Both the position numbers and the translations under genes were made by a program. The notes beneath the pieces were generated by a model. That model made no database searches, was not told where the DNA came from, and saw only the letters and a list, made by a program, of their open reading frames with translations. A stretch of DNA of 64,000 bases from Candidatus Woesearchaeota archaeon (GTDB taxonomy: Archaea > Nanobdellota > Nanobdellia > Woesearchaeales > GCA-2686295), in the NCBI GenBank assembly GCA_016784125.1, contig JADHVI010000002.1, forward strand, positions 35,653 to 99,652. The letters run 5' to 3'. Each line of letters begins with the position of its first letter. Position 1 is the stretch's first letter. This document shows, one piece after another, positions 19,927-46,413 of the stretch.

Positions 19927-20322
19927 GTGATACAAATGTTAGAACAAAATGAAATTTATAAATGTCCACTCTGTGGCAATGTAATTTCAGCACAAGAAGC
20001 TAATGGACCAATCCCAGTTTGTTGCGGACAAACCATGAAGAAGATGCCTGAAATAACAGTCAAAGAGGAAGGCACAGAAAAACACAAACCAGTTGTAAGC
20101 ATTAAAGGCGATAAAGTTATTGTCAATGTTGGCTCAATCGACCACCCAATGGACGAAGATCATTGGATTGAATTCATACAGATCTTAAAAGACGGTAAGG
20201 TTATTGCTGAGAAGAAGCTATATCCAGGTGATAAGCCTAGAGCAGAATTCTTAGTTGAAGATTCAAATAACATTAGATCAAGAGCATATTGCAACATGCA
20301 CGGTTTATGGACAAACGATTAA
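19927..20322 (+). CDS. dfx: desulfoferrodoxin (2Fe superoxide reductase)
   Basis: N-terminal desulforedoxin-type CPLCGN...CCG and a C-terminal SOR site (KHKPV...CNMHGLW). An alternative start is the ATG at 19936. Confidence 0.9.
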   Translation: MIQMLEQNEIYKCPLCGNVISAQEANGPIPVCCGQTMKKMPEITVKEEGTEKHKPVVSIKGDKVIVNVGSIDHPMDEDHWIEFIQILKDGKVIAEKKLYPGDKPRAEFLVEDSNNIRSRAYCNMHGLWTND

Positions 20323-20807: not shown

Positions 20808-21815
20808 TTAAGGCTTATTTTTCTTATGTCTCATCCATAAAAACATTCCCACTATTAAAATAAAAATCAAAAACAATATAATGCTCAAAAGATTCGCATA
20901 CTGCCAACCAATAAGTGCATTCTGAATTGAATAAAAGTATTGCTTTGTACCAAAGACATCCCATGAATTAAATACACTCGTACCCTTAAATATCAGAAGT
21001 ATAAAACCTATGAATAAGAACAAAATACCAGCTATAAAATTAGTTGAATGAATGTGATAAGTTTTATCATCTATCTTAAACTTAAACATTTTACCTTTAA
21101 TAAATCTGCTTTTAGACAAATCAAATTTATCATAAAGCATAGATAAGACAAATAAAGGCACAAGATTGCCAATAGAATAAAACAGCAGAAGCATAGCAGA
21201 ATAAAAAATATTATGAAGCAAAGCACCAATACCAAGAATTCCTGCAAGTATAGGACCTAAGCAAGCAGTCCAACCAATAGCAAAAAATACTCCGAATAAT
21301 AAAGTTCCAGGAATATCATTATTGAATTTTCTATTAGGCTTTATAAAAGAAGCAAAACCTTTGCCAGAGATTGAAACAAGACCCATCAGAATCAAAAAAA
21401 CTCCTGCAAGTGTTACTAACCAATTACTCTGTAATATTGAAAGTGATCGTTCACCAATAAAGCCCGCAATAATACCCATCACTACAAATACTGCTGCAAA
21501 GCCTACAAAAAATACGAGAGTCATCTTAGTGATATTCTTCTTCTCTTTGAATGTATAAGAGAAGTAAGCAGGTAAGAATGGTAAGATACAAGGAGATAAT
21601 ATACCTAAAATACCAGCAACAAAAGCTATGAAAAAAGAGATTTTGACAGAGAAGTCAAGGGTTTGTTGTTGATTTGATTCTATTATCTTCTGTAAACCAA
21701 TAGGTAATTCTGAAGAGTTATCTCCATCATGACTATGATTTTCATGTGCAGTTACAATCGAAGCAAAAGCTACTAAGAAAATCAATAATAACAAAACTGA
21801 AAATAATCTCTTCAT
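20808..21815 (-). CDS. ccdA: CcdA/DsbD-family transmembrane thiol:disulfide electron transporter with His-rich N-terminal segment and C-terminal TM extension
   Basis: A signal peptide is followed by AHENHSHDGDNSS. TM1 motif SPCILPFLPAYFSY and a second Cys helix (GWTACLGPILAG) are typical of CcdA. About 100 extra hydrophobic residues follow at the C-terminus. Confidence 0.8.
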   Translation of the reverse strand: MKRLFSVLLLLIFLVAFASIVTAHENHSHDGDNSSELPIGLQKIIESNQQQTLDFSVKISFFIAFVAGILGILSPCILPFLPAYFSYTFKEKKNITKMTLVFFVGFAAVFVVMGIIAGFIGERSLSILQSNWLVTLAGVFLILMGLVSISGKGFASFIKPNRKFNNDIPGTLLFGVFFAIGWTACLGPILAGILGIGALLHNIFYSAMLLLFYSIGNLVPLFVLSMLYDKFDLSKSRFIKGKMFKFKIDDKTYHIHSTNFIAGILFLFIGFILLIFKGTSVFNSWDVFGTKQYFYSIQNALIGWQYANLLSIILFLIFILIVGMFLWMRHKKNKP

Positions 21816-21820
21816 CTTAT

Positions 21821-22261
21821 TTACTCAACTATTAATTGTCCTCTCATACTACCATGACCAGCTCCACAAGGAACATTACAAAAAAATGTAAATGTTCCAG
21901 TTTTATCGGCTATAAAGTTTACATTCACTTCTTGTCCTGGTTCTAACATTTCATTCACACCGAATTGTGAAAGCATAAAGCCATGAGTTACATCGACACT
22001 CTTTATGTGTAATTCCACGTTATCACCAAGATTCACTCTAATCTCAGAAGGTTCAAAGTTCCAATTTCTGGCAATGAGATCAAATTCTCTCACTTCACCT
22101 GAGAACTTGTCATCTCCATTAGCAACATCAGTTGCTTGAGAGTCAATTGTTTGTTGATTACAAGCAACTAGCAATAATAGACTGGCAAGTAATAATATTA
22201 ATTTTTTGTTTTGCAATTTTGTCACCTCATTAAAAAAAATAAAAAAATTATGGTTGAACAA
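21821..22261 (-). CDS. stand-alone cupredoxin lipoprotein with CuA-type metal site
   Basis: Lipobox LLLVAC. The spacing H-x34-C-x3-C-x3-H-x2-M (THGF...FFCNVPCGAGHGSM), counted by hand, matches the binuclear CuA consensus. Confidence 0.75.
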   Translation of the reverse strand: MFNHNFFIFFNEVTKLQNKKLILLLASLLLLVACNQQTIDSQATDVANGDDKFSGEVREFDLIARNWNFEPSEIRVNLGDNVELHIKSVDVTHGFMLSQFGVNEMLEPGQEVNVNFIADKTGTFTFFCNVPCGAGHGSMRGQLIVE

Positions 22262-23399
22262 TTTCTCCTGTCGTCAAGTCCTTATATGGTTGTCTAGAAA
22301 CGTCCACTAACCTAAATACATAAGTACCATCAGTTTCTACTGTGCCAACATCCTTCCACGCGCTAACAATAACAGAATAAGCACCAACATCACCTTCCAA
22401 TATAATCGTAGGAACTTTTACAATGTTATATTTTTCAATTAATGCTTGACCTTCTGAAGTAGAAATATCAACTGATTTTTCCTCTCCGAAAACAGCACCC
22501 ATATTTACCAAAATTGGTTTATGAAAACTATTTGGATCATAACATTCAGTACATGTTTCATCTGTTATGACAGTCATTGAAAGCAAACCAACAACTCTAT
22601 TCTCGGTTAAATCAACATAAGGAGGAGTTAATAATCTAGTCACATAATAACCGTTTGATTCCACACTTCCCAGTTGATTCCAACTACCAGTAATACCTGA
22701 ACCATAAATTTCCAAATCACTTGACAATATTAAAGTTGGAATTGTTTGTATGTTATATTGAGATATTAACACTTGACCTTCAACACTGTTCATTTCAATC
22801 GTACGCTCATCAGTAATAACTACTCCAGATTGTTTCACACTATTTAACAAAACATCCAAATTATAACAATTGTCGCACGAAGAATCTTGAACTAATATTG
22901 TTAATACTCTTCCTTGTAATTCGCCAGAAACTGCATCAGTATATGGCGGTATGAGCGATCTAAAGACTAAAGCATCATCCTGAAGTTCCATATTTCTAAT
23001 AGAAGTCTTGTTAATTTGACCAAACAATAATACACTTGGAATCTTTTCTATTCCATATTCAGAAATCAGTTCTTTTGCTTCTTCTGAATCAAAGTTTAAA
23101 GATTGTTCTTGTGTTATATTTACGTGAGACTTCTTGATAGTATCAATAATTGGTTGAATATCAAAACAATCATTGCAACTATAATCCGTTATAGTTATCA
23201 TTTGTAGCTCAGCAGGTTTGGTTGCTTCTTTTACCACTGCAAGTCTCTCATCAAGCAAACTATCAAAAGAAGATGTTTGCACAATATTAAATATGGCTAC
23301 CAGTATCAAAACGATTCCCAATACTAAATAGTAATTTTTATGAGAGTTGACTTGTTTGCTGGTTTTTTTAGCGTTTTTCTTATTTTCCATTAACATCAC
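22248..23399 (-). CDS. membrane-anchored protein with three tandem thioredoxin-like CxxC repeats
   Basis: A basic N-tail and one TM are followed by three repeats of about 100 aa. Each repeat has ITD-x-x-CxxC(F/Y) (CNDC, CDNC, CTEC) and a downstream (I/V)P(S/T)(V/L/I)(L/I)L cis-Pro-like element. Confidence 0.7.
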   Translation of the reverse strand: MMLMENKKNAKKTSKQVNSHKNYYLVLGIVLILVAIFNIVQTSSFDSLLDERLAVVKEATKPAELQMITITDYSCNDCFDIQPIIDTIKKSHVNITQEQSLNFDSEEAKELISEYGIEKIPSVLLFGQINKTSIRNMELQDDALVFRSLIPPYTDAVSGELQGRVLTILVQDSSCDNCYNLDVLLNSVKQSGVVITDERTIEMNSVEGQVLISQYNIQTIPTLILSSDLEIYGSGITGSWNQLGSVESNGYYVTRLLTPPYVDLTENRVVGLLSMTVITDETCTECYDPNSFHKPILVNMGAVFGEEKSVDISTSEGQALIEKYNIVKVPTIILEGDVGAYSVIVSAWKDVGTVETDGTYVFRLVDVSRQPYKDLTTGEIVQP

Positions 23400-23661: not shown

Positions 23662-24105
23662 TTAGTATTCACATCCTGTAAGCTCAGCCAATCTTTCAAA
23701 AGATTGAACACGCTCATATTCCTGACCATCTATTACCCATGTTGGTCTTAGATTAAGGTCTTCTTCAATTTCATAATTAATATATTTGAATGATTTACCA
23801 AACATCTGTTTTTGACCATTCGTATATTGACACCAATCTTCACCATACATCACAGCGCCCTTCTCTGTTAAACATTTAGCAAAGTTATCCCAGTTACCAG
23901 GTTTTTGGCTTGAATAAACACCGAATATTACTAATAAAATAACTATTGCCAAAGAAACAAAACCAATTGTTTTATTTCTTCTACTTCTGGAAACTTTGTT
24001 AGTTTTGAAAAGTTTATCTCGCTGTTTCCTATTAGATTCCACCTGTTCACTGGCAGCCTTCTGATTCTCTAATCGACGTTTTCTTCTCTCATTTTTTGAC
24101 ACCAT
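23662..24105 (-). CDS. membrane-anchored thioredoxin-like protein with a single active-site Cys (VKOR-associated Trx-domain type)
   Basis: GAVMYGEDWCQYTNGQKQMFG ... RPTWVIDGQEY ... LAELTGC resembles the Trx-like domain fused to VKOR homologues (YGA-WC-x-HC-x-x-QK), but CxxC is reduced to C-Q-Y-T. Confidence 0.6.
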   Translation of the reverse strand: MVSKNERRKRRLENQKAASEQVESNRKQRDKLFKTNKVSRSRRNKTIGFVSLAIVILLVIFGVYSSQKPGNWDNFAKCLTEKGAVMYGEDWCQYTNGQKQMFGKSFKYINYEIEEDLNLRPTWVIDGQEYERVQSFERLAELTGCEY

Positions 24106-24125
24106 TTTTTATGCGTTTTATGCGT

Positions 24126-24299
24126 TTATCCGCAGCCCCCTCCGACGTAATCTGAACTTGGCGGTGGTATAGTGTTTGGGTCTCCCGAAGAACATCCCAC
24201 TACTACTAAGGCTAAGATTACTAACAAAGCCACTACAAATAACATTTTGTTTCTTGCGTATAACAATTTCAAAGAATTGTATATTACACCTATATTCAT
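24126..24299 (-). CDS. small anchored/lipoprotein-like protein ending in YVGGGCG-COOH (not in ORF track)
   Basis: 57 aa: MNIGVIYNSLKLLYARNKMLFVVALLVILALVVVGCSSGDPNTIPPPSSDYVGGGCG. Its ATG is 1 nt after the upstream stop, with GGAGG 8 nt upstream. An alternative start at 24245 gives a 39-aa lipobox (VVGC) form. Confidence 0.45.
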   Translation of the reverse strand: MNIGVIYNSLKLLYARNKMLFVVALLVILALVVVGCSSGDPNTIPPPSSDYVGGGCG

Positions 24300-24300
24300 T

Positions 24301-25077
24301 TTAACAACCTCCTACCATTCCTGGTAAATTATCCAAAGCAGATGTATCTCCACCCGCAACAGTCATTCCTAACTCAATCATGTTCTTTGGAAAGAATAGT
24401 GTCTTCCACTTTATTACTTCTCGCAATATTTCTCCATCATTGTAATCAGTGTAAGCTGTTAAGTAAAGAGTCACTGATAGAAGAGCAGGGTTATGTTGAC
24501 AACCACATTTAGAGTTGCCGTTCTTGTCAGCGCCTGCAGGGCCAATTCCACAACAATATTCACATGAAACTCCATATGGATTTGAAGCGAGATTTATGTA
24601 TCTCTGGAATGCTTCTGGATTACTTTGTTTTACTTCTGATTTCAATCCTTCAAACATCCTTGCCAGAGTTGCTAATGAAGTAACTGGATCATCAAAGTTT
24701 ACTCCTAACGCATCTCCATACTCAGGTGTTCCTGTTGGAAATAAAATAGCCATTGCATCTTCTGCAGTGTATATATTCTCTACAGGAAAAACTGCCGCAA
24801 TAGCATGACCTGTTGATGTTATCTTTGATAAGTCAAGATCTAAAAGATCAGTTCCGCCAGCATTAATTGATCTTGCACTAACAGAATTTAAATCACCAGA
24901 GATACTGTTTATTTGTGTTTGATTAAAAATCATTACTACAAGTACTAAGACAAACAAACCAATGATTGGCATTGTAAGTGCGTTCTCTGTCTTTTTCGTT
25001 TTGGCTTTTGTTGTTTTAGTTGTCGTTTTAGCTTTAGTTTTCGTTTCCGCTTTTATTTTTGTTTTTCCTTTTTCCAT
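24301..25077 (-). CDS. membrane-anchored Cys-rich protein ending in NLPGMVGGC-COOH
   Basis: 258 aa with a Lys/Thr-rich cytoplasmic tail, one TM, the Cys cluster SCEYCCGIGPAGADKNGNSKCGCQHNP, and the same C-terminal tail as the 74-aa protein. Confidence 0.65.
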   Translation of the reverse strand: MEKGKTKIKAETKTKAKTTTKTTKAKTKKTENALTMPIIGLFVLVLVVMIFNQTQINSISGDLNSVSARSINAGGTDLLDLDLSKITSTGHAIAAVFPVENIYTAEDAMAILFPTGTPEYGDALGVNFDDPVTSLATLARMFEGLKSEVKQSNPEAFQRYINLASNPYGVSCEYCCGIGPAGADKNGNSKCGCQHNPALLSVTLYLTAYTDYNDGEILREVIKWKTLFFPKNMIELGMTVAGGDTSALDNLPGMVGGC

Positions 25078-39608: not shown

Positions 39609-40805
39609 TTATAGAAGTGTGCTGACTTTCTTGAGACTCTTTATGAAATGATCAACCTCTTCTTCTGTGTTGTAAAAATATACTGAAGCCCGGACAGTTC
39701 CAGGTGACTTATGCTTGTTAAACCATGAATGTACACAGTGGGTTCCGCTTCTCACCATTACATTTGCTGAGTTATCTAGTAGCAAAGCTATTTGATGTGG
39801 ATCATTTTTTCCAAGATTAAAACTGGTTATTCCGCCTCTCTGCTCTGGTCCTGGCCCAAGAATGTTAATATTATCAAATGATTCTAATCCCTTTGTTAGT
39901 TTTGTTGTAAGCATTAATTCTTGTTTTTCAATGTTTTTCAAACCGATCTTCTGCAAGTATCTTGCTGCTTCAGCCAAACCAATTATGCCAGCGTAGTTTT
40001 GCAAACCTGCTTCAAATCTTTCTGGTACATCTTCCCATGTTCTTGAAGTATAAGTTGAATCTTTAACTGTTTCTCCACCTACCATGAACGGATGCAAATT
40101 TTCCAATAACGCTTTTTGTCCATACAAAATACCCATACCTGAAGGTCCGAGCATTTTATGACCTGAAAAAGCTAAGAAGTCAACACCTAATTTTCTCACA
40201 TCAACATCTTTGTGAGGTACTGATTGTGCAGCGTCCAACATTACAAGTGCACCGTTTCTATGCGCAATTTTTATAATTTCTTTTGCAGGGTTGGTAACCC
40301 CATCCATATTTGAAGTGTGTACAATAGAAACAAGTTTCACATCTCTGACCTCTCGTTTGAATGCTTCCATGTTAAAAGTATTATCTTCTTTTGAACCAAG
40401 AACTTTTAATTTGATTAATCCTTGTTCAGCTAGTAATTGCCAAGGTAACAAGTTCGAGTTATGCTCCTTGTCTGTTATTAGCACTTTATCTCCTTGTTTA
40501 AACTTGAATGAGTTAGCCACTAAATTAATAGCTTCAGTTGTATTCCTTGTGAATATGATTTCTTCTTTTCTCTTTGCATTGATGAATTTCCTCATGGTTT
40601 CTCTTGACTTCGCGACTTCATCCGTTATCTTGTTGCCTAGACGATGCATACTTCTTCCAGCACAAGCAGGAAACTCGTAGTAATACTTGTTCATAGCTTC
40701 AACTACTTGTTTTGGTTTAAGTGTAACACAGGAATTATCAAAGTACACTATTCCTTTGTCAAGAATTGGAAAATCCTTCCTTACTTTATCAACCCTTAGC
40801 CCCAT
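39609..40805 (-). CDS. cysteine desulfurase (class V aminotransferase, SufS/Csd-like)
   Basis: PLP-Lys region FSGHKMLGPSGMGILYG and catalytic Cys loop RSGTHCV. Confidence 0.9.
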   Translation of the reverse strand: MGLRVDKVRKDFPILDKGIVYFDNSCVTLKPKQVVEAMNKYYYEFPACAGRSMHRLGNKITDEVAKSRETMRKFINAKRKEEIIFTRNTTEAINLVANSFKFKQGDKVLITDKEHNSNLLPWQLLAEQGLIKLKVLGSKEDNTFNMEAFKREVRDVKLVSIVHTSNMDGVTNPAKEIIKIAHRNGALVMLDAAQSVPHKDVDVRKLGVDFLAFSGHKMLGPSGMGILYGQKALLENLHPFMVGGETVKDSTYTSRTWEDVPERFEAGLQNYAGIIGLAEAARYLQKIGLKNIEKQELMLTTKLTKGLESFDNINILGPGPEQRGGITSFNLGKNDPHQIALLLDNSANVMVRSGTHCVHSWFNKHKSPGTVRASVYFYNTEEEVDHFIKSLKKVSTLL

Positions 40806-40837: not shown

Positions 40838-41548
40838 TTACTGTGACCATAGCATATTAAAATAGTTTTGATGAGATTTGGTAATTTCTTTGTTTTGTAT
40901 TTTTATTACTAAAGGTTCCTTATCCCATAGAATGAACAAAGCATTGTTTCCATAAATTATTGTAGTGCTCGGATTAACATTTTCTACAAATTTATATTCT
41001 AATAAGTCTCTTTTTTTTAGTTTTGATTTTAGTGATTTTGGAAAGATCGACCTTTGTTTTATTCTGTTTTCAATTCTTTTCTTATGCCATAACTCAAAAT
41101 ATGAACCAAACACTTCTCTGAACTCCAGATTTGCTGCGATAAGAGAAATTGGTTTCTTGGCGTACAGTATTTCTTCAAAAACAGCTCTCAAACCTTTCTT
41201 TCCGGTAAAGATATTTGCATCCAAAGAATTATCAGAGTTAACATCAATGTTCTTGATCTCTTTTGAAAGACTCGTTTCAATTTTTTTCAACTCGTCTTCT
41301 TTTATTTTAACTAAAGATAAAACTAGTTTTGGATCTCTTGCCTCATACCATTTAACTTTATTTTTTATTATGAAAGCAACTACGCCTTTTGCAACTAATC
41401 TACTTAGTGCTTCATAGATATTTGTCCTGTTGATATTTGTTTCAGAACTGATTTTATTAGGATAACTAGCACTCTGTTTAAGTAAATGCAAATAAACTTT
41501 AATCTCAGATGGACTAAAGCCAATCTTTGAAAGATTTTCTTCTAACAT
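40838..41548 (-). CDS. TrmB-family transcriptional regulator
   Basis: N-terminal wHTH LSKIGFSPSEIKVYLHLLKQSASYPNKISSETNINRTNIYEALSRLVAKGVV. Confidence 0.8.
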   Translation of the reverse strand: MLEENLSKIGFSPSEIKVYLHLLKQSASYPNKISSETNINRTNIYEALSRLVAKGVVAFIIKNKVKWYEARDPKLVLSLVKIKEDELKKIETSLSKEIKNIDVNSDNSLDANIFTGKKGLRAVFEEILYAKKPISLIAANLEFREVFGSYFELWHKKRIENRIKQRSIFPKSLKSKLKKRDLLEYKFVENVNPSTTIIYGNNALFILWDKEPLVIKIQNKEITKSHQNYFNMLWSQ

Positions 41549-41636: not shown

Positions 41637-42407
41637 ATGACTAAAATTAAAGAACCAATATGGGTTATTGGTTGTAATAATAGTGGAACAACAATTCTTA
41701 GAAATACAATTCTATCACACAAAAATGTTTGTGGACCAACAATAGACGGACAAGAGCTTCCCGGAATGCCAAAAATAATGACCCACTATCTAGGAGATAT
41801 GTTTTCTAGATTGTGGACTCATCCAAATACCAAGTTAAATTATTATGTTGACGAAAGTTTTTACAATGAAGAAATAAAATGCGAAATTATAAACGCCTAC
41901 AAACCTTATCTTAAACCAGGAAAAACATTCATTTCAAAAAGTCCTACCGATGTAATTAGAACTCGGTTCATTCAAGCTTGTTTTCCAGATACAAAGTTTA
42001 TTGGAATTGTCAGAAATGGATATGCGGTTTCAGAAGGAACTATTAGAAAAAGAAAAGAAGATCCTGATAGACATTTTCTCAAAGGGCTTTTCACATCTAT
42101 AGATCAAGCAGCAGAACATTGGTTTAGGGCAAATGTTATGATTCTATCAAATCAAACGCATCTTAACAATTATCTAATAATTCAATATGAAGATTTAGTA
42201 GAAAAGCCAAAAGAAACTCTTCATCAAGTTCTAGATTTCTGTAGCTTGGAAAAAGAAGGATTTCAAATTCCAACATTTCAAACAAATCTTAACAAAATAC
42301 AAATATCTACCTTAAATGAATATGAACTAGAAACAGTAACAAGGATCGCTCAACCAATGTTAATTCATTTTGGATATGAAATTCTAGGGCCAGATTTCAA
42401 ATGGTAG
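41637..42407 (+). CDS. sulfotransferase-family protein
   Basis: N-terminal PAPS 5'-phosphosulfate-binding-like loop WVIGCNNSGTTIL and an internal RNGYAVSEG (3'-PB-like). Confidence 0.6.
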   Translation: MTKIKEPIWVIGCNNSGTTILRNTILSHKNVCGPTIDGQELPGMPKIMTHYLGDMFSRLWTHPNTKLNYYVDESFYNEEIKCEIINAYKPYLKPGKTFISKSPTDVIRTRFIQACFPDTKFIGIVRNGYAVSEGTIRKRKEDPDRHFLKGLFTSIDQAAEHWFRANVMILSNQTHLNNYLIIQYEDLVEKPKETLHQVLDFCSLEKEGFQIPTFQTNLNKIQISTLNEYELETVTRIAQPMLIHFGYEILGPDFKW

Positions 42408-43678
42408 TTGTTCAATTAATTCAGCCTGAAAGAAGTCCGGGTTATGCTGACAATTCAAGGTCTGGTTGTTACGTGCCACTTGGATTGGTTTCAATTGCCA
42501 CATATATAAAACAAGAAGTTTCGTTTTCAGAAGTTGAAGTCATAGATGGAGAACTTCTTTCTAATCAAGAAATTATAGCCAGGTTAAAGCCCGGAGCATA
42601 TATTGGCATTGATACAAAAACTCCAAACTATTTTTCTGCTTTACAAATTGCCAGATATGCAAAGAAAAAAGGCTGTAAAGTAATTCTTGGAGGAGTTTAT
42701 GCTTCTGCAATCCCACACACAATAACAAAGCATAGTTCAGATTTAATAGATCATATAGTTGTAGGATACGGAGAAAAAGCATTTGCAGATATAATCAATG
42801 GGAAAAAGGATAAAATAATTGAAGTTCCAATATCTTCATTTGATGAATTACCCATTCCTGATAGAAATCTAGTCAATTTTGAAAAATACATACAACATTT
42901 CAAAGAACAACACCCAACTTGGAATTGGAGAGGAACAAATATTTTCACACATACTGGTTGCAAATATGACTGTCTTTTTTGTTCAAGAACAGGAACTAAA
43001 AAAATAGTTTATAGAAATCCTGAACTAATCTGGAGTGAAGTTCGCTCGCTTGTCGAAGATCATGGAATAGAATACTTAGTTGATTTCAGCGATACAATTA
43101 CTCAAATACCTTCAGCTTTAAGAGCGATAGTAGAATCTAAGCCAAAAGATTTAAACCCTTTATTTCATGTTTTCTCAACTGCCGATGGAATTAATCAAGA
43201 AACAATTGAGCTTTTGAAAAGATTAAACACAAAACATGTTTTTGTAGGTGCTGAAACCGGAGACAAAGTTCTTGCAAAAACCATTGAAAAAGGAAGAAAC
43301 TATTCTCCAAACTTAAGCTTAGAAGCAATAACTCTTCTTAGCAAAGAGGGAATTGATGTAACTCCTTCTTTCGTTCTTGGTTTGCCTGGAGAAACAGAAC
43401 AAAGCTTGAACAATACTCTTGAATTTGTAAAAAAAATAAAAGATGTTTCTAACTTTGAAGAAATATTTTGCTCTGCATTTATTCCTTTTCCCGGATCACC
43501 AGCTTTTAAAATTTTAGAAGAAAGAAAACTTCTTCCTGACACAGACATTTTTGATCCTGAAGAATTAAAGAAAATATGGATTAAAGAATCATGCGAAGTA
43601 GACTATGAAACAATAATAGAATGTGTTGATAAAATATTAGAATTAGCTAGTTATAAAATAACAATAAAAAAAAATTAA
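42401..43678 (+). CDS. B12-binding-domain radical SAM protein
   Basis: N-terminal cobalamin-binding-like Rossmann segment and the CxxxCxxC motif (GCKYDCLFCS). It overlaps the sulfotransferase gene by 7 nt (ATGGTAG). Confidence 0.8.
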   Translation: MVVVQLIQPERSPGYADNSRSGCYVPLGLVSIATYIKQEVSFSEVEVIDGELLSNQEIIARLKPGAYIGIDTKTPNYFSALQIARYAKKKGCKVILGGVYASAIPHTITKHSSDLIDHIVVGYGEKAFADIINGKKDKIIEVPISSFDELPIPDRNLVNFEKYIQHFKEQHPTWNWRGTNIFTHTGCKYDCLFCSRTGTKKIVYRNPELIWSEVRSLVEDHGIEYLVDFSDTITQIPSALRAIVESKPKDLNPLFHVFSTADGINQETIELLKRLNTKHVFVGAETGDKVLAKTIEKGRNYSPNLSLEAITLLSKEGIDVTPSFVLGLPGETEQSLNNTLEFVKKIKDVSNFEEIFCSAFIPFPGSPAFKILEERKLLPDTDIFDPEELKKIWIKESCEVDYETIIECVDKILELASYKITIKKN

Positions 43679-43695: not shown

Positions 43696-45462
43696 TTAGC
43701 AAGATCCGCCTGCTGAAGGTGCTTGTGTTGGCGCTGGAGCTATTGGAATTACTTCACCACATTCTTCTGGTGCTTCATCAAATTCCAAACACAAAGCATT
43801 CTTGATACTTTCTGCATCTCTGCCCGTCATAAAGGTCTTTCCGTTTACTAAGAAAGTTGGTGAGACTTGCGGTGGTATTAAAGTTATTTGTCCATTTTGA
43901 GGATATTCTCTTACGAGTCCTTGAACCAACCTGTCTTCTTCTGCAGCAATTGTTAATTTATCATTTGCTTCGCAGTTCCTGATAACTTCTTTATCTATTC
44001 CAACTGCATCTGCTGCGGTTTCCCAACAAGTATCCGCATTTCTTGAGTCACACATCTCATTCACTTTTACTGTGAATTTAAAGAAAGATTCATATCCAAG
44101 TTCTCTTAAAGCACATAGCTCTCTTACTCCTTGGTTTCCTTCTTGTTCACCGTGCAAAGATCCAACTGTGTCGCCTGCAACATTTATGATGTAATGTGGT
44201 ACTATGTCAACTTTATCTCCTAATACTTGGTATACACCATATGCTGCTTCATCTGCAGGGTTTCCATATGGACAGAATGACATCACAAAGTAATCCAATC
44301 TTGGCTTGGCTGGTTTCTCATTAAAGCCAAGAAATGCTAGATTATCATCAACATATCCTAATATTTGTTCTTGTTGTGCTTCGAGTTGTCTTTGCATTTC
44401 TGCTTCATATGCTACTCTTGCTTCATCATCTATAAACCAGTTTGCACCGATTGCTTCATCTCTCAATCTGAATCCATTTCCTGATTCCATAAATGAACTT
44501 CTAAGCTCTGGATTGTTTTCCCAAGTAAACGTTTCTTCTAAGGATTTTTCAAAGATGAATGCTGGCAAGAATACAAGTCCATTTTCTTCCACTAATGCTT
44601 GTCCTTCTGCATCATCAACATCTACTTTTCTGATGTTTGCTCCTGGAAAAAACTGTGTTGTTACCGATTCAATATTTGCAGTATTGCAGGTTGAACAATC
44701 ATTATCTGTTAGAACTACAACTTCCAATTTTACTGATTCAAAACATGCTTCATGTTCACCACCAAGTGCTTCGCAAATCGCTGTTATGTAGCTTATCTCT
44801 AATCTTCCACCATTGTATGACTTCCCATTCAAATATACTGTTGGACTTGCGCTAGCACCTACTTTATTTGTTTCTACTTCACATGCTTTTAATAGTTCAA
44901 CACCATCATTTACAACGCAACTAGCAATTGCTTCTGTATCGATTGATAATTGATTTGCGCAGTTAGCATATTGTGCTTGTCCTGCTTGGTAATTTTGATT
45001 GAAGCATAACAGGTAATCATAGTGTTTCTCAGGAAAGAGTTTCTCAACACATAACTGCCTCATATTCTCATCTACTTCTGGCTGTCCATGTAAGCTTTGA
45101 AAATTATCTCCTTGTGAATTAACGATATAGTTAATGTTTAAATCAACATCACCATCAAATCTTTGTACCGCTTTTACGAGTTGTGTTTCAGCTTGTGTTC
45201 CTGGCGGACATTGACTCATTACGTATAAGTCAAATACAGCTTCACCTGCTGGTGCGCTTTCGTTCAATGCAAAAACTGATACTAATATAACTGCTATTAA
45301 CACTACAATCAAAGCTGCCAAACTTTTTTTGCCTAAAGGTTGACATCCGCATGAATCATCTTTGCAAACTTCTCCTACTTTATTCTTAATAGGTTTTTTA
45401 GAACTAGGCTTCTTTTTTGTCACTTTTTTTTTAGTTAATTTTTTTGCTGGCATAAATACCAC
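43696..45462 (-). CDS. membrane-anchored multi-domain thiol-redox-like protein (two GILT/DsbA-like modules + one Trx-like CxxC module) ending in GGSC-COOH
   Basis: Lys-rich tail with CKDDSCGC, then one TM. Two similar modules follow (YVMSQCPPG...SLHGQPEVDEN...LC and YFVMSFCPYG...SLHGEQEGNQG...LC). The central VVVLTDNDCSTCN...EGQALVEENGL module resembles the repeats of the 383-aa protein. Confidence 0.65.
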   Translation of the reverse strand: MVFMPAKKLTKKKVTKKKPSSKKPIKNKVGEVCKDDSCGCQPLGKKSLAALIVVLIAVILVSVFALNESAPAGEAVFDLYVMSQCPPGTQAETQLVKAVQRFDGDVDLNINYIVNSQGDNFQSLHGQPEVDENMRQLCVEKLFPEKHYDYLLCFNQNYQAGQAQYANCANQLSIDTEAIASCVVNDGVELLKACEVETNKVGASASPTVYLNGKSYNGGRLEISYITAICEALGGEHEACFESVKLEVVVLTDNDCSTCNTANIESVTTQFFPGANIRKVDVDDAEGQALVEENGLVFLPAFIFEKSLEETFTWENNPELRSSFMESGNGFRLRDEAIGANWFIDDEARVAYEAEMQRQLEAQQEQILGYVDDNLAFLGFNEKPAKPRLDYFVMSFCPYGNPADEAAYGVYQVLGDKVDIVPHYIINVAGDTVGSLHGEQEGNQGVRELCALRELGYESFFKFTVKVNEMCDSRNADTCWETAADAVGIDKEVIRNCEANDKLTIAAEEDRLVQGLVREYPQNGQITLIPPQVSPTFLVNGKTFMTGRDAESIKNALCLEFDEAPEECGEVIPIAPAPTQAPSAGGSC

Positions 45463-45486
45463 CCCTCATTCTTTAAATAAATTTAA

Positions 45487-46413
45487 TTATTCTTTTAGTT
45501 TTCTATCAATAATTTTTTTGAATTCTTTATAAGATTTTGGTCCTACTAATGATTCTTCTCCGTTTATGAAGAATGTTGGCGTTCCATAAATGCCTGCGAG
45601 ATGTCCATCCGCATAGTCATTGTTTAATTCATCATCATATTTCTGGGACAAAACACACTCATCATATTGTTCCATATTAATTCCCAAAGGAAGTACGAGT
45701 TCTCTAATTGTACTATCATTTAGAATTTCTTGGTTTTCAAATAGTGCAAAATAATAATCCCAATAGCCTTCTCGACTTTGTTCATAAACACATTGTGCAC
45801 TTAATGATGGCTCATGAGCGTGTTCGTGAATACTCAACGGAAAATCTCTGAAAACAAAAAGAATTTCATCTTGATTATTTTCATAAAGCTTTTTTACGGC
45901 TCCAAGAGCTGCTTCTCTAGAGTATTGACATTTGAAACAACCAAACTCTATAATAGTCACTTTTGCATCAGGATTACCAAACCATGGATCATCATCAACA
46001 CCCACTATTCCCGGATTCAACTCTGCCTTGTCTGCGATGCCACTAATACCATTTGATCCAGTTCCACCAGGATTAAAAGGACAAAAACCAGTTGCATCTT
46101 CACCATTGCAGTTCTGATAAAGAGCTAAGTAGTATATTCCTTGAATAGAGTAAACAATGCTAATAATAAACAATATTAGAAATATCCAAGAAATTATTTC
46201 AAAATGTCTGTAAATAAATCTTCCACCTACTGGACAACGCTTCATAAGTTTGCCTGTGATTTGTGCTTTTAACCTCTTGTCAAGACCCGTATCACATTTT
46301 CTCAAGGTAACTCTTTTGAACATACAATCCAATGCTTCCTTAGCAATAATTCTATGAGTGCTGCTAAATATTCCTAGAATTCCAAAGACGATGAGTGCTA
46401 TGATACATATCAT
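45487..46413 (-). CDS. DsbA-like thiol:disulfide oxidoreductase fused to an N-terminal Cys-rich two-TM domain
   Basis: DsbA domain with TIIEFGCFKCQYS (CxxC) and GTPTFFING. The N-terminal roughly 115 aa have two TM helices with Cys residues on both flanks (C-x10-C, RCP, NCNGEDATGFCP). Confidence 0.75.
   Translation of the reverse strand: MICIIALIVFGILGIFSSTHRIIAKEALDCMFKRVTLRKCDTGLDKRLKAQITGKLMKRCPVGGRFIYRHFEIISWIFLILFIISIVYSIQGIYYLALYQNCNGEDATGFCPFNPGGTGSNGISGIADKAELNPGIVGVDDDPWFGNPDAKVTIIEFGCFKCQYSREAALGAVKKLYENNQDEILFVFRDFPLSIHEHAHEPSLSAQCVYEQSREGYWDYYFALFENQEILNDSTIRELVLPLGINMEQYDECVLSQKYDDELNNDYADGHLAGIYGTPTFFINGEESLVGPKSYKEFKKIIDRKLKE

Follow-up and report, generated by a model that had tools for sequence, protein, structure and literature searches.

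Ever since disulfide pathways were surveyed comparatively, it has been asked how DsbA is re-oxidized in organisms with neither DsbB nor VKOR. The question is raised again by two genes on contig JADHVI010000002.1 of a Candidatus Woesearchaeota archaeon (assembly GCA_016784125.1), in a stretch of 64,000 nucleotides, here called the window, to which all positions refer unless another contig is named. One gene encodes a 308-aa protein in which DsbA is fused to a cysteine-bearing module with two transmembrane (TM) helices; the other encodes a 588-aa protein with a C-terminal cysteine. The initial annotation of the window suggested that the fused module could be a minimal re-oxidation or electron-relay partner of DsbA.

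Both open reading frames (ORFs) are real genes, and nearly every feature noted in that annotation is present and conserved. These features are far beyond chance, since their conservation persists down to 40-50% identity and in two domains of life. The genes belong to a conserved system of three or four components in ultra-small DPANN archaea and bacteria of the Candidate Phyla Radiation (CPR). Its components would be a SufS-like cysteine desulfurase that is cytoplasmic and dedicated to the system; a membrane module of two helices, whose predicted inner loop bears two invariant cysteines and whose outer face bears three; an outside thiol-disulfide domain, here the fused DsbA; and often anchored CPYG proteins of the GILT/DsbA fold with a flexible C-terminal tail ending in cysteine. 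The link to the desulfurase alters the likely mechanism compared with the initial idea. The combination of the module and a dedicated desulfurase has no described counterpart: no description of the module, or of a pairing of DsbA with a desulfurase, was found in the published literature.

The genes and domains considered first are the following.

45487..46413, minus strand: gene of the 308-aa protein (ORF call and homologues)
46060..46413, minus strand: N-terminal five-cysteine two-TM module, residues 1-118 (conserved cysteines, AlphaFold2 (AF2) helices, charge bias)
45487..45993, minus strand: DsbA-like domain, residues 141-308 (Thioredoxin_4, DSBA, Foldseek, invariant columns)
43696..45462, minus strand: gene of the 588-aa protein (ORF call and homologues; start probably at ATG 45453)
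39609..40805, minus strand: paralogue of SufS-like (group II) cysteine desulfurase (pyridoxal phosphate (PLP) lysine in SGHK, catalytic cysteine in RSGTHCVHSWFN)

The genes of the 308-aa and 588-aa proteins are both on the minus strand and are separated by 24 nt. The ORF caller starts the 588-aa protein at GTG 45462, whereas in the public protein cluster the first codon is ATG 45453, three codons further on, giving 585 aa; the latter is the likelier start. The genome of this tiny symbiotic archaeon (0.95 Mb, about 33% GC) is 84% complete, and its closest protein matches are in Woesearchaeota and Nanoarchaeota, both DPANN archaea.

The five-cysteine membrane module

In the AF2 model, where the module has pLDDT of about 80, TM1 spans residues 2-19 and the long TM2 spans residues 71-99, with short helices at 21-35, 44-59 and 61-69 between them. 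Both the model and hydrophobicity agree with the original reading of the first 115 or so residues as two TM helices. The inner loop, residues 20-72, has 53 residues and carries the pair C30-x9-C40. Its net charge is +9.4, compared with -5 for the segment after TM2 and -12 for the DsbA domain, and over the orthologues it contains on average 13.9 Lys and Arg vs 4.5 Asp and Glu. By the positive-inside rule, this charge bias suggests a cytoplasmic loop, with the N-terminus and the DsbA domain on the outside, so that C3, C102 and C111 are predicted to face outward.

Five cysteines of the module are conserved. C3 at the start of TM1 is invariant, C30 and C40 are in the loop, and the outer motif NCNG...FC (C102-x8-C111), which follows TM2, is near-invariant in the alignments. 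The spacing of C3, C30 and C40 is retained in 146 of the 150 cluster representatives listed, most of which also have the outer pair. Three serines in the module helices, S17, S75 and S85, are near-invariant as well. Thus the doubt raised initially, that the N-terminal cysteines might vary among orthologues, is not borne out. The two pairs had been noticed on the basic loop and on the outer face, and both are conserved; however, the loop spacing is C-x9-C and not C-x10-C, the cysteine of the RCP motif (C59) is not conserved in orthologues, and the invariant C3 had been overlooked.

Residues 1-125 have no match in Pfam at E<=1 and none in NCBIfam, and a profile search of PDB with the module produced no match at E<=10. 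Foldseek with the full 308-aa model returned only matches to the DsbA domain, and thus does not inform on the fold of the module.

When 1.8 billion cluster representatives were searched with residues 1-125, 299 matched at E<=1e-3, 247 of them at E<=1e-10, from DPANN archaea and CPR bacteria. About two thirds of the family are fused to DsbA, mostly in proteins of about 300 aa. The rest are stand-alone, many of them 130-175 aa long, and the module is also joined to other outside domains. This range of contexts marks the module as an autonomous family and more than an anchor. A search for the N-terminal domain on its own had been proposed with the question of whether DsbA always accompanies it: stand-alone copies do exist, and some are in desulfurase-flanked loci with no DsbA gene close by. 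In species-representative genomes 281 loci were confirmed, in Woese-, Aenigmat-, Micr-, Alti- and Nanoarchaeia and in Patescibacteria, e.g. Shapiro-, Falkow- and Gottesmanbacteria. The module is present in 75 of the 301 sampled genomes of the window's phylum, nearly always as a single copy.

Stand-alone modules often bear a short cysteine-rich C-terminal extension, frequently with a cysteine near the C-terminus. One such extension recurs in P0138, P0171, P0180, P0213 and P0237 (e.g. HCGSEHCxxxGCxCx6-7Cx6-8ACEGNCxCx4C) and has no Pfam match.

The linked cysteine desulfurase

The window desulfurase gene is 2.9 kb from the gene of the 588-aa protein. Adjacency was assessed by tblastn with this Aminotran_5 protein over 80 fetched loci of species-representative genomes. 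A desulfurase gene with 46-76% identity was found within 4 kb of the module in 67 of them, mostly directly abutting. In six of the other 13 loci the contig ends on the side in question, and thus 67 of 74 evaluable loci are positive. The gene is located downstream of the module in archaea, and on its upstream side in CPR bacteria. Stand-alone modules without a neighbouring DsbA gene are flanked by it as well (loci L006, L026, L058, L060, L061 and the genome G139), and in locus L005 the order is desulfurase, separate DsbA, stand-alone module. Apparent fusions of DsbA or the module with the desulfurase (L028, 537 aa; L014, 446 aa; L073, 450 aa) were rejected as overshoots of the ORF caller in another frame.

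The catalytic cysteine is present in all linked desulfurases save one end-truncated copy. The PLP lysine is present in the window copy, whose catalytic motif is RSGTHC, and SGHK motifs are seen among the linked enzymes. Their signature RSGxHC(V)HSWFN differs from R[AG]GHHCAMPL, the form in other SufS-type genes from these genomes and related ones. A quick-search maximum-likelihood tree splits the 66 linked enzymes from the 21 others by a branch with support of 100 in the SH-like approximate likelihood ratio test (SH-aLRT), and the CPR members are nested among the archaeal ones.

The best NCBIfam match of the window enzyme is TIGR01979, with 443 bits, below the cut-off of 475, whereas the SufS of contig 26, in a separate clade, scores 575 bits. 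The latter is encoded in a minimal sufB-sufD-sufS-sufC operon (C26:21376-25818), beside which no sufE or sufU is visible. Thus the window enzyme has the group II residues, but it does not reach the SufS family cut-off and is not encoded within a suf operon. At least two Aminotran_5 genes are present in 65 of the 75 module carriers vs 47 of the 226 other genomes (odds ratio (OR) 25, p 9e-25); p values of co-occurrence, both here and for VKOR below, are uncorrected for phylogeny. The linked desulfurase is a dedicated paralogue and the most constant partner of the module.

The DsbA domain

The C-terminal domain of the 308-aa protein is, by modelled fold and by motifs, a bona fide DsbA, as had been proposed from its CFKC motif. 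Pfam assigns residues 141-303 to Thioredoxin_4 (PF13462, E 1e-21) and also reports DSBA (PF01323, E 4e-12). The AF2 model has mean pLDDT of 84.5, and above 90 within this domain, which has the thioredoxin fold with an inserted helical domain. Foldseek matches it to alpha-DsbA of Wolbachia, alpha-DsbA2 and BdbD of B. subtilis with TM-scores of about 0.8, and to other DsbA proteins. The CxxC active site (CFKC, C159 and C162), the cis-proline loop GTPTFF (T278-P279) and a second cysteine pair, C208 and C253, are all invariant in 30 orthologues. The charge bias of the loops predicts that the domain is extracytoplasmic.

The 588-aa protein

Four parts of the 588-aa protein, all on the minus strand, are the following.

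44728..45240, minus strand: GILT/DsbA-fold module 1, residues 75-245, monothiol VMSQCPPG, SLHGQPE (GILT, AF2)
44458..44727, minus strand: central thioredoxin-like unit, DCSTC, residues 246-335 (BLASTP, PDB profile)
43753..44310, minus strand: GILT/DsbA-fold module 2, residues 385-570, monothiol VMSFCPYG, SLHGEQE (AF2, motifs)
43696..43752, minus strand: flexible Pro/Ala-rich C-terminal tail ...SAGGSC-COOH with a tethered cysteine (pLDDT 36-62)

The AF2 model, based on an alignment of 50 sequences and with mean pLDDT of 89, has the following architecture, numbered on the 585-aa form.

Residues 1-38: disordered inner tail
Residues 42-63: TM helix
Residues 72-229: module 1
Residues 243-335: thioredoxin-like unit
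Residues 343-374: long helix
Residues 385-555: module 2
Residues 567-585: disordered tail

The single TM helix described initially is thus found again, and the protein is predicted to be membrane-anchored and exported, with the Lys-rich tail inside. The motif CKDDSCGC of this tail is present as described, but it is not conserved: the tails of homologues are Lys- or His-rich, and the motif was rejected as a candidate cytoplasmic redox or metal site. His-rich inner tails occur in many CPYG proteins.

Pfam reports GILT (PF03227) with 39.2 bits vs the cut-off of 22.4. PDB profiles match mouse GILT (6nwx, E 9e-7) and 1a8l/1j08, and Foldseek aligns the modules with mouse GILT (TM-score 0.76) and S. 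aureus DsbA (0.71). Thus both the profile and the fold are those of GILT, but the dithiol CxxC active site is replaced by CPPG and CPYG. The observation that each of the paralogous modules has a single cysteine holds for the family: the 120 best homologues contain 231 CPxG motifs at the CxxC position, with two per protein in 94 of the 120. Both modules indeed have the motif SLHG-x2-E, noted after each site, and the 50-sequence alignment shows no exception to its His and Glu.

In PDB profile searches the central unit resembles archaeal protein disulfide oxidoreductases (PDO) and glutaredoxin-like units. Its suggested match to the repeats at 22248-23399 is found by BLASTP with the third repeat of that 383-aa triple-thioredoxin protein (33% identity over 63 aa, E 2e-7).

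The C-terminal AGGSC is a real feature, since 119 of the 120 best homologues have a cysteine within the last five residues (...GSC, ...GNC, ...GCG, ...GCGV). In many loci of archaea and CPR bacteria, single-module relatives with FVMSxCPYG and a cysteine tail are encoded immediately 5' of the module. There are 39 cysteine-tail ORFs in 1.03 Mb around the module (32 of 80 loci) vs 3 in the whole 0.95-Mb genome of the window, two of which are in this window; thus their density around the module is about 12-fold higher. The exported partners also carry many invariant extra cysteines, which probably form structural disulfides and so speak for disulfide formation in this system.

The second thiol locus and known oxidases

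The window contains another thiol locus at 20808-23399, with CcdA (20808-21815, DsbD_TM, E 9e-14), a cupredoxin-like ORF and, next to CcdA, the anchored protein with three tandem CxxC thioredoxin units. CcdA and the triple-thioredoxin protein look like the reducing arm of an envelope thiol system, and beside such an arm a separate oxidizing arm would make sense.

A 258-aa anchored protein at 23662-25077 ends in ...NLPGMVGGC and belongs to no Pfam family. Its homologue in G139 (225 aa, ...PSQVGGC) is in one cluster with the desulfurase and a stand-alone module, and therefore the two thiol loci of the window are probably one functional system.

This cluster (L110, G139:C6:14500-23500) encodes the VGGC-tailed protein, a Met/His-rich small exported protein, a desulfurase of the HAWFN type (HSWFN variant), the stand-alone module with a tail of about ten cysteines, a CCAHH membrane protein, a truncated VKOR-like gene, two small membrane proteins, an NDH-2/SQR-like flavoprotein and an ArsR regulator.

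The initial annotation recommended a check of the rest of the genome for dsbB and vkor. There is no match to DsbB (PF02600) or VKOR (PF07884) at E<=1 in the 84%-complete genome. A candidate MauE (PF07291), the 137-aa DoxX-like membrane protein at C28:8649-9062, was rejected, as it has no cysteines at all. This protein of the DoxX/MauE family scores above the Pfam cut-off for MauE and could be mis-annotated as such. A UbiA-family prenyltransferase is not found in the genome, being present in 14 of 14 control genomes, and thus no quinone synthesis is visible.

In the sample of 301 genomes from the phylum, 23-28% of module carriers have VKOR vs 50-52% of the rest (OR 0.29-0.36, p 3e-5 to 5e-4). 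The complementarity of VKOR and the module is thus real but partial, and the module is not simply a substitute for VKOR, since the two co-occur in some carrier genomes.

Possible mechanisms

The strength of the gene link demands a functional connection between the desulfurase and the module. Group II desulfurases pass persulfide sulfur to an acceptor cysteine, as in the pairs SufS-SufE, SufS-SufU and CsdA-CsdE. Since the basic loop is the module's only cytoplasmic part and has two invariant cysteines, C30 and C40 may by analogy be the acceptor of the linked desulfurase, which is the most economical reading. The explanation that we favour, at a little under an even chance, is a relay fed by the desulfurase that delivers cysteine-derived sulfane sulfur, or oxidizing power, to exported thiol proteins.

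In such a relay the sulfur of L-cysteine would be taken by the desulfurase as an enzyme persulfide and passed to C40 or C30 of the loop, similarly to the transfer from SufS to SufE or SufU. Zero-valent sulfur oxidizes dithiols, producing a disulfide and H2S. Here S(0) would act as the oxidant in the same way (two thiols and S(0) giving a disulfide and H2S), and the oxidizing equivalent, or the sulfur atom itself, would arrive at the outer C3, C102 or C111. From there it would be transferred to the CxxC of DsbA, and to or from the CPYG and tail cysteines, so that exported proteins would be oxidized without quinones or oxygen. Each transfer of sulfur or electrons, as well as the passage through the membrane, is presumed. 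There is a precedent in anaerobic cultures, where polysulfides drive DsbA-dependent disulfide formation (PMC11921322). This precedent, together with the fusion of two thirds of the family to DsbA, is the reason to favour oxidizing sulfur supplied by the desulfurase.

In its boldest form, which we consider doubtful, the system would add a third kind to the known de novo generators of disulfides, with L-cysteine as the terminal oxidant and the CPYG proteins with cysteine arms as shuttles: cysteine would be converted to alanine and S(0), and the oxidizing equivalent would cross via the two-helix protein. The other generators are the quinone-dependent DsbB, VKOR and MauE and the flavin-dependent Ero1 and Erv. 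The monothiol CPYG sites and the cysteine-tipped tails would, by analogy, fit a variant in which sulfur is carried as persulfide.

Several observations weigh against a relay that supplies DsbA with oxidizing sulfur. The module has only two helices and no intramembrane cysteines, whereas DsbD and CcdA require such cysteines, and there is no explanation of how sulfur or a disulfide would cross some 30 angstroms. Compared with DsbA of the E. coli type, S(0)/H2S is a weakly oxidizing couple. Seven loci with sufficient flanking DNA have no adjacent desulfurase. VKOR is present in 17-21 of the 75 carrier genomes, including one of the same genus, and the G139 cluster with the desulfurase, the stand-alone module and the VGGC-tailed protein includes a truncated VKOR-like gene. 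As the genome is 84% complete, a VKOR may have been missed. The co-occurrence of VKOR and the missing transmembrane path are the weakest points. They also bear on the original suggestion of a minimal re-oxidation partner, which gains from the conserved cysteines and from the lack of detectable DsbB and VKOR, but loses from the presence of VKOR in about a quarter of carriers and from the absence of membrane cysteines.

One unlikely alternative is that the relay is a sulfur carrier and not a disulfide generator. Persulfide sulfur would then be moved outward on the tail and CPYG cysteines, for persulfidation of the surface or for capture of thiophilic metals, e.g. copper, as sulfides, with DsbA as a transferase or editor. 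In its favour, Gly/Ala/Ser-rich cysteine tails are found in nearly all homologues and are enriched around the module, stand-alone modules often have cysteine-rich tails of their own, and monothiol CPYG fits mixed persulfide chemistry better than dithiol oxidation. The His-rich inner tails point in the same direction, as do metal genes at several loci, where L005 has a P-type ATPase/HMA protein, L006 a MopE-like protein, and G139 membrane proteins that are Met/His-rich or carry CCAHH. However, the metal genes are not constant neighbours, and in two thirds of the family the module is joined to a canonical DsbA with CxxC, a protein with an established function in dithiol oxidation. The likeness of the tails to SoxY and DsrC would be an analogy, and the transmembrane problem is equally present. 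Quite improbably, the inner pair could bind a metal or an Fe-S cluster, e.g. by four cysteines in a dimer, and the desulfurase would build this cluster; in that case the module would tune the outside DsbA by sensing redox state or sulfur, or by acting as an electron sink, and would not be a thiol relay. Two invariant cysteines per chain on a helical inner loop, the likely dimerization of a two-helix protein, the classical role of desulfurases in Fe-S assembly and the recurrence of hydrogenase maturation and Fe-S genes near the locus are consistent with this possibility. On the other hand, a complete sufBDSC operon, including a SufS, is already present in the genome, the module alignment contains neither conserved His or Asp ligands nor a known cluster motif, it would be unusual for a desulfurase to be dedicated to a single small cluster site, and the three outer cysteines would be left unaccounted for.

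The least probable of the explanations, and a very improbable one, is that the module is an anchor with structural cysteines, and that DsbA is re-oxidized by VKOR, host quinones or ambient oxidants. VKOR would then be encoded in the unassembled 16% of the genome, and the desulfurase would be a neighbour for regulatory or historical reasons. The genome is incomplete, VKOR occurs in about a quarter of carriers, and one genome of the same genus has both it and the module. However, retention of five cysteines, three helix serines and the 53-residue loop, with 40-60% identity in both archaea and bacteria, is not what a plain anchor would show. Nor does this explain why stand-alone module genes stand beside the desulfurase in loci without DsbA, why the desulfurase clade co-travels with the module across domains, and why VKOR is significantly depleted in carriers.

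Comparison with known systems

The module occupies the position that, by analogy, is expected of the membrane partner of DsbA. As in the case of DsbB, VKOR and the recently proposed MauE pathway, a membrane protein with cysteines is encoded next to, or fused with, an exported protein of the DsbA/thioredoxin fold; fusions of VKOR to thioredoxin exist, and the arrangement of VKOR and MauE with thioredoxin-fold partners (10.64898/2026.03.05.709764) is comparable to the DsbA fusion. There are also cysteine pairs near the outer membrane face, and the module is partly complementary to VKOR. However, Pfam, NCBIfam and PDB profiles reveal no sequence relation to these oxidases. DsbB (PF02600) is a four-helix bundle with two periplasmic cysteine pairs; VKOR (PF07884) has four or five helices, with CxxC at a helix end and a loop pair; MauE (PF07291) has four helices and an outward CXC. 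The module matches none of the three families. It has two helices, no CxxC or CXC at a helix end and a cysteine layout different from that of VKOR, and one of its conserved pairs is predicted to be cytoplasmic. Moreover, no quinone pathway is visible in this genome, and the constant partner is a desulfurase, a component absent from all three systems.

A cytoplasmic thiol partner coupled via a membrane protein, sometimes fused, to an exported thioredoxin-fold domain is analogous to the situation in DsbD, CcdA and ScsB. DsbD and CcdA have six to eight helices and two intramembrane cysteines, whereas the two-helix module has no mid-membrane cysteine and no match to DsbD_TM or DsbD_2. They carry the reducing power of thioredoxin, a role filled in the window by its own CcdA, whereas the partner of the module is a desulfurase that would generate an oxidant.

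The window enzyme resembles SufS in its group II residues. It probably requires an acceptor protein with a cysteine, and within the system C30/C40 would be the only candidate for a cytoplasmic acceptor analogous to SufE, SufU or CsdE. It differs from SufS by its score below the cut-off, its own clade, the HSWFN signature and its location away from sufBCD. The presumed acceptor differs in being a membrane protein, has no sequence similarity to SufE or SufU, and matches no known acceptor family in Pfam or NCBIfam.

The modules of the 588-aa protein share with GILT the profile, the fold of 6nwx and the His-Gly-x2-Glu core of the signature, but they are monothiol (CPxG), duplicated, membrane-anchored, prokaryotic and joined to a CxxC thioredoxin unit and a cysteine arm. 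SoxY (...GGCGG) and DsrC (...CV) carry sulfur on C-terminal cysteine arms. By analogy with them, the 588-aa protein has a flexible Gly/Ala-rich C-terminus ending in cysteine in a sulfur context, but its carrier fold is GILT/DsbA-like.

Neighbouring genes

Three genes assigned by Pfam stand between the desulfurase and the pair of thiol genes.

40838-41548, minus strand: TrmB-family regulator
41637-42407, plus strand: sulfotransferase
42401-43678, plus strand: B12-radical SAM protein

The genes of the sulfotransferase and the B12-radical SAM protein overlap. In a genome of the same genus the desulfurase, 588-aa-type and 308-aa-type genes are contiguous, and therefore the trio is probably an insertion and not a part of the system. 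Elsewhere in the window, an ORF at 19927-20322 resembles desulfoferrodoxin or superoxide reductase, a candidate from sequence that would point to anaerobic life.

Implications

CPR and DPANN organisms constitute a large share of microbial diversity, are attached to their hosts by surface proteins and mostly have no respiratory chains. By the count of a 2026 preprint, about 20% of bacterial species still have no known disulfide pathway (10.64898/2026.03.05.709764). What the module and its desulfurase do may be approached experimentally as a testable hypothesis, and with its two or three genes and five specified cysteines the locus is a concrete candidate, both compact and transferable. If the sulfur-driven mechanism is false, an unannotated family with a dedicated desulfurase will still be in need of a function. 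If it is true, it would be new redox biochemistry and a possible tool for anaerobic production of disulfide proteins. And if L-cysteine indeed drives a third kind of disulfide generator, this would explain how surface proteins acquire their disulfides during folding in anaerobic, quinone-free CPR and DPANN organisms.

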